Notes: a model not told the origin generated them from the letters alone. DNA of 64,000 nucleotides from Candidatus Gottesmanbacteria bacterium (GCA_023245335.1 JAHFKK010000001.1:872019-936018), one strand, 5' to 3'; counted from the first letter of the stretch, positions 53,160 to 59,192 are shown. Translations and numbers: made by a program.

Positions 53160-53270
53160 AAATGAGGCTATCTAGCCTCAAAAAACCTATTCTTATAGGT
53201 CTTGCTCCTACTACCCCACGGGAGTAAAATGGTTGTTCCGACGCCCCTTTTGTCATATTTGGAGTCTCAT

Positions 53271-53864
53271 ATGGGAAGAAGCCACATCAAAGCGATCAAA
53301 CAACCGGACGACACGACCTGCGGACCCGCTGCTTTGCAGATCGCACTCCGCGTTCTCGGCGTCCGAAAATCGCTCGATACACTTATTACGCTTTGCAAAA
53401 CCAACAGAAACGGTACGTCTACCGCACATATGATCCAAGCGGTCAACAAACTGGGACTTTCGTGTCTCGTCATGGAATATACGACGCTTCATCATCTACA
53501 AAGCGCTTTGAAATATCGTCCCAACGAAGCACGCGCCGTCTTGGTATCGTACCTTTATGATCTGGACGACAAAGACGAACCGCATCCTGAGTCCGGCCAT
53601 TGGGCGACCGTCGCCTCATATCTTGCGAGCAAAAGCAGAATCGTACTTCTCGACAGTTCGACAGGAAAACGCAAATCATATGACTGGGCGGATTTCCGCG
53701 ACCGCTGGTACGATTATGATTACAAACGCCGGAAATTGAAGCGCCGCGGGCGGAAATTCCGGCTCATTCACAAATGGCAGGCCCAACTTATGCTGGTCGT
53801 CGCGCGGGATCCGGAATCGCTGCCATACTTCCGTATCGCGACTGCACGAGTATTCATACCTTAA
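53271..53864 (+). CDS. Papain-like cysteine peptidase domain protein (C39/BtrH-N-like).
   Basis: QPDDTTCGPAALQIAL is a C39-type catalytic Cys context and GHWATV a His context. Basic C-terminal tail. The start could also be at 53229. Confidence 0.5.
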   Translation: MGRSHIKAIKQPDDTTCGPAALQIALRVLGVRKSLDTLITLCKTNRNGTSTAHMIQAVNKLGLSCLVMEYTTLHHLQSALKYRPNEARAVLVSYLYDLDDKDEPHPESGHWATVASYLASKSRIVLLDSSTGKRKSYDWADFRDRWYDYDYKRRKLKRRGRKFRLIHKWQAQLMLVVARDPESLPYFRIATARVFIP

Positions 53865-53915
53865 CCTCTGGGACAAAACCTTACGGTTTTTTCCCAACGA
53901 TTTTCCCTCATAAGT

Positions 53916-53954
53916 GTCGCGAAGGGCTCAGGTCATAAAGCACTCCTTCGCGAC
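53916..53954. other. 10-bp inverted repeat GTCGCGAAGG/CCTTCGCGAC with a 19-nt loop between convergent genes.
   Basis: Possible bidirectional terminator. No strong U-tract. Confidence 0.35.
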
Positions 53955-53956
53955 AG

Positions 53957-54955
53957 TTAGACTGTGCGGCGACGCAGGGCAGACTCTACAATCTTCCAGA
54001 CAAAGTCCGCAAACGACATACAGATTGCTTTGTACGATACGGTCATCCCATATTCAGGATCATCTCCTAATCCGGGATTGGAGTTGACCTCCAGAAAATA
54101 CGGGGTACTGTCGCTGCTGCAACGTATATCAAACCGTGCGTAATCCCGAAATCCCAGAGACCGGAATGCAGCCCTGCTCATCGACTCGACCATAAGAGCG
54201 AGCTTAGGTTCTATCGCGGCAAGTGTCACGTTCGAATTGTTATAGTCGGGATGCGTCATATCCCATCGGCTCTCATAGGTGAGAAATGGTACGTCCGTCG
54301 TCTTGGTAAAAATAATTTCCGACGGGGGCAACATAAAAAGTTTCTGATTCATTTCAAGGAGCGTCACCTGAAACTCCCGCCCCGACAAAAATTCTTCCGC
54401 ATACACCGGCTGTTTATATTGGAGGAGACATTTGCGAATTCGATCCCGGAGTGCCTCTTCATTTTCGACAACTGCTTCTTTGGATAGTCCGACACTCGAG
54501 TGCTCACTGCTTACTTTTACGATGACGGGATAGTGGAAATCTGTACGTATCGGTTCATCACCGCTTATATATAATTGCCAGCGTGCGGTCGGAAGGCGGA
54601 GCTCCTCAAGCCGCTTTTTCATGAGACTTTTATCACAGGTTAAGAGGTAATTGTCTTTCGTCGCGCCGGTATAACGCAAATGCTTTGCATCCATGAGATC
54701 AAACGTCTGCATGGCATACTTCGTATCAATACCGGTCCACTCAATGAGATTAAATACCAAATCCCCGGTGAGGGACGCAACCGTTGCATCAATCGTGTGT
54801 TCTGTGATGGGCACCAGCCGGGTCTGAACGCCTTTGGTTTCTAACGCGTCGGCTACTTCCTGAGCGGATTCCTCTGTATCTTCTTCCGCTTCCCAATGCG
54901 CAGCGTGTTCAGCGAATCTCTCCGTCGGCTTGTTATATAAAACTGAAATTTTCAT
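53957..54955 (-). CDS. ATP-grasp ligase of the D-Ala-D-Ala ligase family with a divergent N-terminus.
   Basis: EEFLSGREFQVTLLE. C-terminal RFDIRCSSDSTPYFLEVNSNPGLG and the SFADFVWKIVESAL ending match the Ddl family. The N-terminal Gly-rich P-loop-like motif is absent. Confidence 0.55.
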   Translation of the reverse strand: MKISVLYNKPTERFAEHAAHWEAEEDTEESAQEVADALETKGVQTRLVPITEHTIDATVASLTGDLVFNLIEWTGIDTKYAMQTFDLMDAKHLRYTGATKDNYLLTCDKSLMKKRLEELRLPTARWQLYISGDEPIRTDFHYPVIVKVSSEHSSVGLSKEAVVENEEALRDRIRKCLLQYKQPVYAEEFLSGREFQVTLLEMNQKLFMLPPSEIIFTKTTDVPFLTYESRWDMTHPDYNNSNVTLAAIEPKLALMVESMSRAAFRSLGFRDYARFDIRCSSDSTPYFLEVNSNPGLGDDPEYGMTVSYKAICMSFADFVWKIVESALRRRTV

Positions 54956-54974
54956 GATTTCTTTCTATAAAGTA

Positions 54975-56111
54975 TCACGACGGATGTATATTCCGTTTGG
55001 CAATTTGTTCAGTAATATAGGAGTTTGCTTTTTCTAACCGATACGGCAACGTTCTTGGATCTTTCCATACATCCGTAACCATCTTATGCACCTGCGTACG
55101 AGCATAATCATCAGGGGTCATAACATCTTGAAGAATATCCGGCATATTCAATGCAGCGTTCACATAGCCCAGCTCGACCCCTGCCTGAAATTTGTATCCG
55201 TCTGTCGAAGGGCTTTTTAATAAATCTTGTGTGATTTTGATCACTTGCTCCTGATCAACCAATGAAGGATTTTTTCGCATGCCCATGAGCAAATCATTGG
55301 TCTTTTTGTCATTAATCATTTCTTTGACGCCATTAATACCAATACCGATCGCAATAGCAACACTTGTAAGTCCCATAAGTGCCGACACAGTTTGGGTGAG
55401 CTTAGTTTCTGGAAAAATTCCATTTTTCAATTTGACTCCAGTCTCGAATCTAAAGGCCATATCGGAAAGAGAACCATGAAAAAGATATAAATTTAATAAA
55501 CCTAAACTGTTGTTAACTACATGCACTGTCATTGACTGGGCAAGACCCTTTTTTTGTGATTCTCCTGTCAAATTGGCGGCATCGATTGTTTCCTTGATTG
55601 GTTTCGCTAACCCTAAAGACCGATAAATACCTCCGGTATGTCCGAATCCAAAAAGGACGTCTGCCGTGCGTCTGGCAACATCCGGGCGTACGTCAATTCC
55701 TACGATTTTACCAACAGCTGTTACTATGGTAGGAATTGCTTTACTCCGAAAAATAAGTTCTTCTAAAACTGGCGCCCCTAAAGTACCATACCAAAGCATT
55801 TTGATATCACGCGAATCCATGCCTTTTCGTGCTCCGGCAACCGAGATACCCAAATTAGCTAGCCCAACGCTACCTAATGTTGCCAGAAACAGCTTTTTTG
55901 ACGACGAGTGCTCCCAGGTCTTAGCCAACCACGAACCTTTGATCTCTCGTTTATTATCGTCGATGGTTTTTGTCGACCAGTCAACGAATTTTTGTGTTTC
56001 GGCAACGGCATCAGCAACAAATTGTTGTCGCTCTGTCGGGCTCAGTTGCTCCAAGTGTTTTTGCGAAATTCCGATTTTATGATCCTGACGTATCCCGGAT
56101 GTTGTTTCCAT
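54975..56111 (-). CDS. CPBP-family (CAAX protease/Abi-like) intramembrane metalloprotease homolog, unusually long.
   Basis: Motif 1 LEELIFR, motif 2 FGFGH and motif 3 HVVNN, in the correct order and spacing. 378 aa, with N- and C-terminal extensions. Confidence 0.5.
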   Translation of the reverse strand: METTSGIRQDHKIGISQKHLEQLSPTERQQFVADAVAETQKFVDWSTKTIDDNKREIKGSWLAKTWEHSSSKKLFLATLGSVGLANLGISVAGARKGMDSRDIKMLWYGTLGAPVLEELIFRSKAIPTIVTAVGKIVGIDVRPDVARRTADVLFGFGHTGGIYRSLGLAKPIKETIDAANLTGESQKKGLAQSMTVHVVNNSLGLLNLYLFHGSLSDMAFRFETGVKLKNGIFPETKLTQTVSALMGLTSVAIAIGIGINGVKEMINDKKTNDLLMGMRKNPSLVDQEQVIKITQDLLKSPSTDGYKFQAGVELGYVNAALNMPDILQDVMTPDDYARTQVHKMVTDVWKDPRTLPYRLEKANSYITEQIAKRNIHPS

Positions 56112-56116
56112 ATGGG

Positions 56117-57118
56117 CTATATGTGATGAAACTTATCGTGGATTTGTTTCAACTGCGGGTTCGTGACATGGGTATAAATCTGCGTCGTCGAGACATTTTT
56201 GTGACCCAAGAGTTCTTGGATCGCCCGCAGATCTGCGCCATTTCCCAAGAGATCTGTCGCAAACGTGTGCCGCAACCCGTGCGGCGTAATTTTGATCGGG
56301 AGCTTCGCCTTTTTGGCGTACTTTTCGACGAGGCGCTGGACGCTTCGCGCCGTCAGGCGGATGGATTCTCCGGTCTTGTCATCCTCATCGGGTTTTTTAC
56401 CGGAATAGCGGATAAAAATCGGTTTCAAATCATCCTCACGGCTTCCGATATATCGCTTCAGCCAATCGGCTGACGCGTCGGATAAAAATACGACGCGTAG
56501 TCTGCGGCCTTTCCCGATGACGCCAAACTCCCGGCGATCGAGATTTATCCCGTCACGGTTAAGCGCCACGAGTTCCGAAACCCGCAGTCCGGTAGAAAAA
56601 AGCACTTCCAGAATTGCTTTATCTCGTAACCCCTCGGGCGTAGAAATTTCCGGCATGTTCAGGAGCCGGTCCACTTGCTCCCGATCCAAAAATTTTATCG
56701 AGTGACTTTCCGCTTTCGGCAAATCAATTTTGTCCGGCGTAATCGAGGGGATATCGCGCTTGGCGAGATATTTGAGAAAACTCCGAAGCGCTATCAGATG
56801 ATAATTTTGCGTGACTCGCTTGAGCGTCATGCCGTGCGGATCAGAAAAACGCGCTAAATATAACCGGTATTGCCGGATGCTTTCAGACGTAATGTCATTC
56901 ACCTTCGCTGAAGCTACGGTGGACAAGGAAGTTTTTCCGCCAGAGGCGGATCGGCCTCCGGCCGACACATCAGCTCCGGCAGGGGAGGGGATTTGGCCTG
57001 TCAGAAAGGCCAAAAACCTAGTCAGATAATGTTTGTAATTGCGAATCGTCAATTGCGAAACATTTCGTTCAATTTCGAGATATTCCAAAAATTCTTTCAG
57101 AAGCTTTTCGAGATCCAT
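56117..57118 (-). CDS. Tyrosine recombinase (XerC/XerD/integrase family) with a low-complexity insertion in the N-terminal domain.
   Basis: N-terminal SAM-like core-binding domain (LEYLEIERNVSQLTIRNYKHYL). C-terminal HGLRHTFATDLL...LLGHKNVSTTQIYTHV (R..HxxR..Y). Insertion PSPAGADVSAGGRSASGGKTS. Confidence 0.8.
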   Translation of the reverse strand: MDLEKLLKEFLEYLEIERNVSQLTIRNYKHYLTRFLAFLTGQIPSPAGADVSAGGRSASGGKTSLSTVASAKVNDITSESIRQYRLYLARFSDPHGMTLKRVTQNYHLIALRSFLKYLAKRDIPSITPDKIDLPKAESHSIKFLDREQVDRLLNMPEISTPEGLRDKAILEVLFSTGLRVSELVALNRDGINLDRREFGVIGKGRRLRVVFLSDASADWLKRYIGSREDDLKPIFIRYSGKKPDEDDKTGESIRLTARSVQRLVEKYAKKAKLPIKITPHGLRHTFATDLLGNGADLRAIQELLGHKNVSTTQIYTHVTNPQLKQIHDKFHHI

Positions 57119-57150
57119 AATGATACAGTAACGTCTACACAATCAATAAT

Positions 57151-57891
57151 GTGCGACATTATATGATTTGTCAATATGGTACAATGTGTATCATGACGCT
57201 ATTTCAAAGGACACAACTTGATCTGATGCGTCAAATGGAGCTTACGCTCGCCTCGGATTCAAACACTTCTACGATCGTACCGTTTCAGGCTGATTACGCC
57301 ACAGACAACCAGATGTGTTTGAGCGTCAACGCCTTCTTATCTCGTGCAATTGGATTGTCCATACAAACCAAACTAATCGACCCGTTACGGCAAATCGATC
57401 CTACCCAATACTATTACTCAAACGGCTCTCTACATATTACGTTTCACAGCGTCCGAATCATCCATAACCCGCCATCATATACGGACTTGGATATCAAAAA
57501 CTCCAAGCAGTTACTAGCGAAATTCGTCCCGCCGGAACGACCGTTTCCGTTTGTCCTACAGGGCGTTCTATCCATGCCGACAAGCGTTTCGCTCATAGCG
57601 CTTGTGACTCCGGAATATGATCAATTTATACGGCGCCTTCGGCATGAATTTATTTCATCCGGTATCCCTGATGACAAAAAATATTTCACTGACAAAATGG
57701 TTTTTGCCAATACAACGATTTGCCGGTATACCCATAAACCGTCACAAGAATTTTTGGAAAAGGTTGCGGAGTTAAAAAATTTGTTTATCGGAGAGTACAC
57801 CGCAGAAAAAGTCTGTCTGGTAGAGACCAATGCAGGGGCATACCCATCAAAAACGACCGTTTTGGCTGAATATCGGTTCAGCCAAATTTAG
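57151..57891 (+). CDS. Hypothetical protein, divergent from the recombinase gene.
   Basis: 246-aa ORF. A single HxT-like motif (LHITFHS). No confident family assignment. Confidence 0.3.
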   Translation: MRHYMICQYGTMCIMTLFQRTQLDLMRQMELTLASDSNTSTIVPFQADYATDNQMCLSVNAFLSRAIGLSIQTKLIDPLRQIDPTQYYYSNGSLHITFHSVRIIHNPPSYTDLDIKNSKQLLAKFVPPERPFPFVLQGVLSMPTSVSLIALVTPEYDQFIRRLRHEFISSGIPDDKKYFTDKMVFANTTICRYTHKPSQEFLEKVAELKNLFIGEYTAEKVCLVETNAGAYPSKTTVLAEYRFSQI

Positions 57892-58409
57892 CCTCAAATT
57901 TGAGCTCCTGTAGTGACCTACAAGGCCTTCGTTTCCACAAAGACGTACATGCGATCGTCTTATCCAACGCACAAAATGAGTTTTGGCCCGTTATGACAAA
58001 ATAAAGGTCAATTGTCAAAAAATCATAGACAGCTAAAACTAGGTGTCGGAGAGATCCTATATATGGAGGCAAATAAATAGGAGAGCTATAGAAAACAAAT
58101 GAAGAACAATGTGTAAACAAATGCGCATATTTATGATGAAAGTATCGTATGGCAAAAGCAGCGGTTTACAGCACACCTCGTGCATGACGTCGCAAAAGTA
58201 TTATTGTGCGACATAGTATATCATTTATTCCCCGGGCGGGGGTAAATCGCTTAAAGACCTGAAACCTCCCAATAAATAATGGCAAGGCATGTTATTCGGG
58301 GAGACGGAAGCCCTTTACTTCGTGAGAGAACCCTTGCTTGAGGCCTTTGACTGCATGAACTGGTTCTCCCGCCGATTGTGCACACAAATGACCACAGTTA
58401 TGTAAGCCT

Positions 58410-58960
58410 CAAAGAGCGTCATTCGGGTTATTTATGACGTCGCTATTTAGAGCATCAATATGCGCTAAACGACTGGTTTCGAGGCCAGAACTGCTCCACT
58501 CTACGCGATGTCCTATATGGCACATTTATGAGTTTAGCGCATTATTACGTGCTATAGTTACATTATCAAGGCTACCTATTCGTCCTGTCAAACGAGCGTC
58601 ATGTAGTATATGTGTCATTTTGGCGCTTTAATACGCTCTATATCAATATATTTGAGGCTATTCTGACAATATCTTTTATTTAAGGTGTATATGCATAGAT
58701 AGAGCGTAATAACAGCCTGTATATGTTATTTTAGCCTTACATAGACATACTCATACGAGCTTCTGCGCTCATGGGGAATGGTAATTAGCGTTCACCAGGC
58801 GTGGCTGCCAGTCATTATTTCTTTTCGGTTATATTTAGCCCATTAATACGCGCTAACCAGGTGTTTTCAAGGCTGATTCTCATCTATCTTCGACGTGATA
58901 TATGAGTATTTAGAGCGTAATAACAATCTAAACAACCATTTTATCGCACAACTTGTGTAC
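58410..58960. repeat. Array of degenerate iteron-like repeats of about 80-90 bp in a 1.3 kb noncoding region.
   Basis: Units share AAAgAGCGTCAT...TATTTAGAGCatcAATAtGCGCTAAA...TTTCGAGGC. The 19-mer TATTTAGAGCGTAATAACA occurs identically at about 58699 and 58907. Confidence 0.5.
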
Positions 58961-59091
58961 TCAAGGGAGCGGAAGGAGTGCGGTCCAGGCTCAATAGTAT
59001 GGTTGTATGTGGTATTACCCCTACCCTGGAACAGACGTTTCATGAAGCTAAATGAGGCTGTGAAAATAGTTTAGCCAAACCGTGAAATAAA

Positions 59092-59100
59092 TTATCCACA
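59092..59100 (+). promoter_or_regulatory. Perfect DnaA-box consensus TTATCCACA.
   Basis: Single exact match. A weaker TTATCCAAC lies at about 57960. AT-rich sequence lies around 58000-58130. Confidence 0.3.
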
Positions 59101-59192
59101 TTGTGTCCTATAATTCTATAGGCCTATGACTTAACTATATCAAACTATATCTACCATAAACACCCATACTATACTTCCCTCTTCCCCAGTCC

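Follow-up and report, generated by a model that had tools for sequence, protein, structure and literature searches.

A C39-fold cysteine peptidase gene and a non-canonical Ddl-lineage ATP-grasp ligase gene recur as convergent neighbours in Microgenomates bacteria

The window analysed here is a stretch of 64,000 nucleotides (nt) from Candidatus Gottesmanbacteria bacterium (GCA_023245335.1 JAHFKK010000001.1:872019-936018); positions are counted from its first letter. Its gene content is of the type found in chromosomes of Patescibacteria (the Candidate Phyla Radiation, CPR), and the close homologues all come from Gottesmanbacteria, Woesebacteria or the Microgenomates group. Three adjacent open reading frames (ORFs) encode a C39-fold cysteine peptidase, an ATP-grasp ligase of the D-alanine-D-alanine ligase (Ddl) lineage and a CPBP/Rce1-like protein, and a gene for an XerC/D-type tyrosine recombinase comes next (Table 1). 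The original prediction took the three genes for one cassette, serving peptide maturation and immunity or else the remodelling of cell-wall peptides. Much of its description stands: the ORF list has the three ORFs, the first convergent to the others; the quoted motifs (TCGPAALQIAL and GHWATV in the peptidase; EELIFR, FGFGH and HVVNN in the CPBP-like protein) are all in the translations; and the domain assignments were upheld. Each of the three proteins belongs to a known superfamily and, within it, to an uncharacterised subfamily. What recurs in relatives is the pair of peptidase and ligase genes, and the CPBP-like gene stands apart from it.

Table 1. Features of the locus, with the basis of each assignment
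Feature	Position in window	Strand	Basis
C39-fold cysteine peptidase, 197 amino acids (aa), soluble, stand-alone	53271..53864	+	PF03412, AlphaFold2 (AF2) model, motif conservation
Spacer, 92 nt, between convergent stop codons	53865..53956	.	direct sequence reading
ATP-grasp amide ligase, Ddl lineage, 332 aa, non-canonical 'LYN-type' subfamily	53957..54955	-	PF07478
CPBP/Rce1-like protein, 378 aa, soluble N- and C-terminal extensions	54975..56111	-	motifs, family-wide PF02517
XerC/D-type tyrosine recombinase gene	56117..57142	-	Phage_integrase PF00589 E 5e-43 and SAM-like N-terminal domain

The peptidase matches Peptidase_C39 (PF03412) with E 4e-10 and 40 bits, against a cut-off of 22. The 'BtrH-like' label that it had been given was not borne out, as BtrH_N (PF14399) gave no match at E<=0.1. 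The ORF does extend to 53202 as first proposed, with longer variants starting there (TTG) or at 53229 (ATG). That start was not retained: the ATG at 53271 is most likely the true one, because GGAG sits 7 nt 5' of it and the resulting MGRS N-terminus is conserved across homologues (MGRSH), which are typically about 197 aa long. The catalytic residues Q11, C17, H110 and D128 do not vary within the family at identities down to 31% (alignments A2, A4 and A5); in L088, a related locus (such loci are numbered with an L here) from a lineage without the ligase, Glu replaces D128. No hydrophobic segment was found in the protein. Its AF2 model has a mean confidence (pLDDT) of 78.5, and the top Foldseek matches are the peptidase domains of ComA, PCAT1 and LahT150 (target template-modelling score 0.77-0.82); PeiR, a pseudomurein endoisopeptidase, and the phytochelatin-synthase-like Alr0975 match its structure less well. 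The family is a narrow one: among the 1.8 billion representatives searched it comprises only 17 clusters at E<=1e-30, mostly of about 200 aa with a few fragments, to which a basic C-terminal extension is common; past these come generic C39 domains of about 150 aa. No ABC transporter lies beside the peptidase gene, whether in the window or among the related loci that were examined. From its conserved residues the peptidase looks active.

The ligase matches Dala_Dala_lig_C (PF07478) with E 6e-25, and no match to Dala_Dala_lig_N (PF01820) was found in it. Against the NCBIfam Ddl models (TIGR01205 and NF002378) it scores 102-110 bits, where the cut-offs are 243-246. It matches 32 NCBIfam families, the best 25 of which are all of Ddl/Van type, and its closest PDB relatives are all Ddl enzymes (55 bits for the sequence alone, 96 bits as a family profile). 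Residue numbers follow a sequence of Escherichia coli DdlB whose residues 56-304 agree with PDB alignments. K97, K144, S151, E180, E187, R255, D257, E270, N272 and G276 of DdlB are kept in all 16 ligase-family sequences compared. In the same sequences the residues of the second D-Ala site and omega loop are replaced: H63 by E/D, K215 by R, Y216 by W, S281 by D/E/P/H (mostly acidic) and L282 by E/D. The ligase also has an acidic loop, GDD(D/P)EYG. The expectation of a non-canonical member of the Ddl lineage was thus well founded, with a best score of 110 bits against a cut-off of 243 and the second-substrate residues replaced. The N-terminus, which had been called atypical, is so in part: it reads VLYNKP and has YNKPT and an insertion of about 10 residues in place of GGxS. 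Its stretch EEDTxxSAxxV resembles the ExxVSxxSAxxV of Ddl, so that it is less atypical than supposed.

By its sequence the ligase is catalytically competent, keeping all that the formation of an acyl-phosphate from ATP requires, with a second-substrate site rebuilt and made more acidic. Since the residues that hold the second D-Ala are replaced, mostly by acidic ones, the nucleophile is probably a cationic amine and not D-alanine. We also consider that the ligase is probably not the housekeeping Ddl, because its scores fall below the cut-offs, its pocket is changed and Alphaproteobacteria, Phycisphaerae and Omnitrophota have the same ligase type in extra tandem pairs. These three groups normally carry a canonical ddl.

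The opposite view, that this ATP-grasp protein is the lineage's own highly divergent housekeeping D-Ala-D-Ala ligase and that both peptidase-like genes are bystanders, is an unlikely one. In its favour, Ddl is the only family that the ligase resembles over its full length, the catalytic residues are all kept and the gene is in nearly all genomes of the clade. No canonical Ddl was seen in the 1.29 Mb of loci fetched, which were targeted to the ligase region only, and from the Microgenomates loci among them E. coli DdlB used as a query retrieved only this same ATP-grasp family. These points have to be set against the shortfall in bits and the replaced residues (H63, Y216, S281 and L282) already described. 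The ligase is moreover missing from its slot in four lineages and duplicated in others, and the same type is an extra gene in phyla that normally have a canonical ddl.

In the window the peptidase gene runs towards the ligase and CPBP-like genes. The spacer between the two convergent stop codons has two inverted repeats, AAAACC..GGTTTT, followed by a run of T, and GTCGCGAAGG..CCTTCGCGAC. In many relatives the 3' ends of the peptidase and ligase genes overlap by 4-26 nt, as against the 92-nt spacer here. On the minus strand the xerC-like gene lies 5 nt upstream of the CPBP-like gene, which is separated from the ligase gene by 19 nt, and the sole strong promoter-like match is at 57174-57146 on that strand. 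The xerC, CPBP-like and ligase genes are therefore probably one transcript, to judge from this layout, which does not by itself imply a common function.

The predicted adjacency of peptidase and ligase genes is found throughout the relatives. A set of 74 related Microgenomates loci with enough flanking sequence was assembled from GTDB loci and from a metagenome scan seeded with divergent C39 sequences; in 70 of them the C39 gene is directly followed by one or two convergent ATP-grasp genes. This includes every GTDB species-level Microgenomates locus with enough flank, over a range of ligase identity of 41-65%, the C39 gene lying convergent right after the ligase gene. The adjacency holds where SIMPL or FolD has dropped out, and the metagenome scan added divergent lineages in which one ligase or two tandem paralogous ligases stand beside the C39 gene (L079/L080, L096 and L097), several of them having two. 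It is also found once beyond the CPR. L110 is a metagenome contig of 51% GC with response regulators, on which a 285-aa C39 protein (PF03412, 26 bits) with a C-terminal extension of about 130 aa and a 396-aa ATP-grasp protein are encoded by convergent genes with a 4-nt overlap, immediately beside murB and murA (L110 4124-8878). The L110 ligase is of the same type as that of the window and has an identical DYARFDIR motif. Chance is an unlikely explanation for this arrangement because only six outgroup C39 loci were retrieved, L110 being one of them.

We propose, tentatively and as the likeliest of several readings, that the two proteins are a cytosolic couple of amide ligase and hydrolase whose product is not D-Ala-D-Ala, the CPBP-like gene being no part of it. 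The simplest competing explanation is that peptidase and ligase are functionally unrelated and are neighbours only through a synteny that spans the clade from gyrA to xerC. This explanation is somewhat unlikely in our estimate and is the most serious of the alternatives. The block, which runs gyrA .. folD, SIMPL, C39 and then, facing C39, ATP-grasp and xerC, is conserved as a whole in the Microgenomates (Gottesmanbacteria/Woesebacteria-like) clade, and in most relatives xerC abuts or overlaps the ligase gene. Within the clade the mean identity to the window protein is 81% for GyrA, 72% for XerC, 69% for C39, 53% for the ligase and 52.5% for FolD, so that the peptidase is far more conserved than its supposed partner.

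Several further observations count against a coupled function. With GyrA 75-91% identical the clade is a fairly shallow one, and synteny extends over the whole region; adjacency taken by itself is for this reason weak evidence. Being convergent, the peptidase and ligase genes are not co-transcribed. Four loci (L088, L093, L098 and L102) keep an intact C39 gene with no ligase beside it; in three of these the C39 gene is directly against xerC, and in L093 a 430-aa protein with an OmpR-type DNA-binding domain takes the ligase's place. Conversely, no C39 gene was found near the ligase gene of L051 (39% identity) or near those of the distant relatives L054, L055, L057 and L059-L065, which include all the distant tandem pairs, even with a hidden Markov model (HMM) of the family; and L111 and L112 have homologues of the L110 peptidase with no ligase beside them. 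A mirror-tree (distance-matrix) test of co-evolution with XerC and FolD as controls gave no signal specific to C39 and ligase: the partial r is 0.28 for C39-ligase, 0.29 for C39-FolD and 0.43 for C39-XerC.

What tells against synteny as the full explanation is that the adjacency outlasts the loss of SIMPL or FolD, that it is also present in divergent lineages with one or two ligase copies, and that the convergent, overlapping pair recurs on the non-CPR contig. Functional coupling of peptidase and ligase is on these grounds the best reading, rated only slightly above plain synteny. Searches of the literature for a C39-ligase gene pair and for ddl in Microgenomates were without result, so that the recurrent pairing of C39 and Ddl-type genes is undescribed as far as the literature was searched.

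Some observations concern the ligase family more widely. Distant relatives of the ligase (32-34% identity) form tandem pairs in other Patescibacteria. One such pair (L055 7164-12558) lies between serS and secA with genes for S-adenosylmethionine decarboxylase, a spermidine-synthase-like methyltransferase, an S66 LD-carboxypeptidase and a 456-aa unknown protein; the other (L054 9995-12483) is accompanied by a spermidine-synthase-like gene only. These neighbours hint at a polyamine or stem-peptide link for the wider ligase family. In two lineages a protein family of about 440 aa is encoded directly upstream of the ligase (L051 2488-3831 and L103 6084-7406), with a 4-nt overlap of the two genes in L051. 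Its invariant motifs are GCQT, HMEEN, YPGL..GG.SMGV and GYAIH. Pfam gave chance-level matches only, which fall well below cut-offs (E 0.0045 and 0.13), and none was found among PDB sequences. It is a speculation, prompted by the invariant GCQT motif, that this protein might be an amidase of the N-terminal-nucleophile or cysteine type. In L058 (7285-8300), L077 (743-1282) and L103 (5003-6181) the ligase ORF is frameshifted or has no usable start codon, which may reflect gene decay or assembly error.

The third gene of the proposed cassette has a different history. The CPBP-like protein of the window scores below the Pfam cut-off for PF02517 (E 0.066, 13.9 bits; cut-off 22.4); its family, which has 11 members among 5.8 billion clustered proteins, matches that model throughout, all 11 at E<=0.1 and the best at 1.4e-7. 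The three motifs fall at E117-E118-x-x-F-R122, F154-x-x-x-H158 and H197-x-x-x-N201; in the 11 sequences E118, F121, R122, H158, H197 and N201 are invariant, with conservation of at least 90% at E117 and F154. Only two segments show strong hydrophobicity, and the AF2 model is all-helical (pLDDT 80) with no significant fold match in the PDB. The best-conserved part of the protein is its C-terminal stretch of about 90 residues. Membership of the CPBP family is plausible on these motifs.

The genomic record detaches this gene from the other two. It has a GC content of 42.6%, and of 38.5% at third codon positions (GC3), against 48-52% and 53-60% in the neighbouring genes. It adjoins the ligase gene only in the window genome and in L006/L013; in 4 of its 6 contexts it is elsewhere, in unrelated and variable surroundings (L008/L009, L073, L074 and L075). 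L073 and L074 share their assemblies with L018 and L028, where xerC abuts the ligase gene directly, and there the CPBP-like gene is on a different contig from the pair. In relatives the slot between xerC and the ligase gene (window 54956-56116; L010 9025-9987; L011 9346-9936; L041 8902-9984) is taken by other genes. L010 and L014 have a 320-aa unknown protein there; L011 has, on the opposite strand, one of 196 aa that is NUDIX-like by eye with no Pfam match; L022 has a sequence apparently related to that gene; and L041 has a 360-aa protein that by eye only is a sugar-phosphate nucleotidyltransferase. What lies just downstream of xerC is thus variable, unrelated genes occupying this slot according to species. 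Small genes are also inserted at times between the ligase and C39 genes (L031, L036 and L052). A search for repeats flanking the CPBP-like insert found chance-level short repeats only. Because its composition is foreign, other genes occupy the slot in relatives and most of its contexts lie elsewhere, the CPBP-like gene is shown to be an unrelated accessory gene acquired into the xerC-ligase slot, outside the peptidase-ligase unit, and the idea of a three-gene cassette does not hold.

CPBP/Abi proteins include bacteriocin immunity proteins, and the original prediction had raised the possibility of a system for a peptide made on the ribosome and modified after translation (RiPP), of graspetide/microviridin-like kind, or of a bacteriocin cassette. 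In such a system the ligase would modify a precursor, the C39 peptidase would cut its leader and the CPBP protein would confer immunity. C39 peptidases do cut double-glycine leaders, and ABC transporters with a C39 double-glycine peptidase domain are the family found most commonly in graspetide ATP-grasp loci (PMC8939145). No graspetide-type model is among the best 25 of the 32 NCBIfam families matched by the ligase, no ABC transporter is near the pair, the pair has a fixed place within a syntenic block of housekeeping genes and is not patchily distributed, and the CPBP-like gene is unlinked. The intergenic spaces measure 5-112 nt, and the only large gap is one of 1.3 kb. For a precursor we searched all ORFs of at least 20 aa in this sole sizeable non-coding stretch, comparing every stop-to-stop segment on both strands with related loci by tblastn, and found no conserved small ORF, in keeping with the earlier statement that no obvious precursor ORF is visible. 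The tblastn matches that the gap did give fall in several frames and on both strands, and conservation there is therefore at the nucleotide level and not coding. Published CPR graspetide loci hold precursors, TPR proteins and metallopeptidases instead (PMC8939145). As there is neither a precursor ORF nor a transporter, and the ligase is not of graspetide type by its best-matching families, a RiPP or immunity role is unsupported and largely refuted, and we regard it as very improbable. Nor was any toxin or bacteriocin neighbour found in the six contexts of the CPBP-like gene, and a PADLOC search for defence systems gave no match for the peptidase, the ligase, the CPBP-like protein or the 246-aa ORF at 57151-57891.

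The ORF-free gap (window 57892-59192) is of interest on its own account. It is kept at the same place in all relatives, with flanks that cannot be aligned around a nearly invariant 28-bp site at about 58186-58213, ACGTCGCAAAA-GTATTA-TTGTGCGACAT. Two imperfectly inverted arms of 11 bp around an AT-rich centre of 6 bp make it look in layout like a Xer/dif recombination site. The window has a single copy of the site, about 1 kb away from the xerC-like gene, and changes in its arms are symmetric in several loci. Cumulative GC skew does not turn here; this speaks against a replication terminus and leaves an operator as the alternative. No Rfam match was found for the gap, relaxed thresholds giving one chance-level snoRNA match, and across the 64-kb window (1-64000) no tRNA, tmRNA or Rfam family was found at gathering threshold. 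Elsewhere in the window, at about 22100-42900, a long gene run resembles a type IV pilus cluster, judged from N-terminal sequences in the ORF list: there are pilin-like N-termini (GFTLIELL), a prepilin-peptidase-like ORF and PilB/T/C-like ORFs.

Both enzymes of the pair are, on the evidence of their sequences, intact and cytosolic. If they do act together, the ligase would use ATP to form an acyl-phosphate on a small amino-acid-like carboxylate and would join that carboxylate to an amine other than D-Ala, probably a positively charged one. The same amide-linked compound or peptide would also be the target of the peptidase, which would trim the substrate or else hydrolyse the product. The two might in this way write and erase one bond, as glutathionylspermidine synthetase/amidase does; this logic is an analogy, which weakens the case for coupling.

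The original prediction also suggested remodelling of the peptide stem of the cell wall. The ligase would in that case add an amino acid to a side-chain amine of the peptidoglycan stem-peptide precursor, in the manner of D-aspartate ligase, and the papain-fold peptidase would trim or recycle peptides of this kind. The descent of the ligase from Ddl agrees with this, and an acidic second-substrate pocket would suit the amine of Lys, Orn or diaminopimelate. The L110 pair is beside murB and murA, the peptidase model also resembles PeiR, relatives of the ligase give weak matches to an archaeal pseudomurein ATP-grasp model, and an S66 LD-carboxypeptidase gene adjoins a distant ligase relative. All of these items are either analogies or single cases. 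In no Microgenomates locus does the pair have a mur, ddl or pbp gene next to it, and both proteins are cytosolic with no envelope-targeting signal. A role in the cell wall accordingly seems improbable to us, to about the same degree as a housekeeping Ddl.

There is no evidence yet of a new kind of system. It is conceivable, though again we think it improbable, that the pair is an undescribed two-enzyme system, so far mainly of Microgenomates, by which an amide bond is written on a target in the cytosol and erased again. Such a system might have the protease bare a C-terminal Gly-Gly on a protein or peptide, which the ligase would link to an amine via an acyl-phosphate; or the pair might form a branched cell-wall precursor. 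Either, if true, would be new chemistry for both families.

If the pairing of amide ligase and hydrolase is functional, the two genes would define a couple of enzymes, as yet uncharacterised, in a large group of bacteria that are uncultured and depend on hosts: a Ddl descendant with a new substrate and a soluble double-glycine-type peptidase without a transporter. This would add one reaction to the sparse known metabolism of the CPR. It would also be a caution against annotating such proteins as Ddl or bacteriocin exporters, as has been done for some homologues in public sources. If the pairing is synteny only, the finding is an ordinary one.

Comparison with known systems places each part of the locus close to a described family and apart from it. 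CPR graspetide clusters (Makarova et al. 2022, PMC8939145) share with it an ATP-grasp gene in a CPR genome and peptidases nearby. Besides graspetide-type ligases, those loci contain precursor peptides, metallopeptidases, and TPR and 'cluster 23' proteins (PMC8939145), and none of these components is at the window locus. The third protein has the three conserved signature motifs of the CPBP/Abi intramembrane glutamic proteases (Rce1-like, PF02517); unlike a typical member it is, taken alone, below the Pfam cut-off, and it has only two clearly hydrophobic segments and long soluble terminal domains.

The peptidase shares its fold and its Q/C/H/D set with the domains of ComA, PCAT1 and LahT150 (PCAT/AMS ABC transporters; MEROPS C39), and these double-glycine peptidase domains are its best matches in sequence too (3k8u, E 3e-6). 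In contrast to those domains it is stand-alone and cytosolic with no transporter nearby, it has a conserved basic C-terminal extension of about 45 residues and an invariant MGRS N-terminus, and no double-glycine leader substrate is encoded near it in the intergenic spaces and the 1.3-kb gap searched. The ligase has the three-domain ATP-grasp layout of Ddl (E. coli DdlB, 2dln; A. baumannii, 5d8d) with an alignment over nearly its full length and identical ATP, Mg and catalytic residues. It differs from Ddl in scoring below all family cut-offs, in lacking Dala_Dala_lig_N, in its insertion of about 10 residues after strand 1 and in the replacement of the HGxxGEDG motif, Y216, S281 and L282.

For the pair as a whole the nearest likeness is glutathionylspermidine synthetase/amidase, in which an ATP-grasp-type synthetase is fused to a papain-like CHAP amidase. 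By analogy, an ATP-dependent amide ligase is there combined with a Cys-His amidase by which the bond is reversed or edited. In the present case ligase and peptidase are of other subfamilies, and the genes are separate and convergent instead of fused; as a further point of likeness, distant relatives of the ligase are encoded beside polyamine-synthesis genes.

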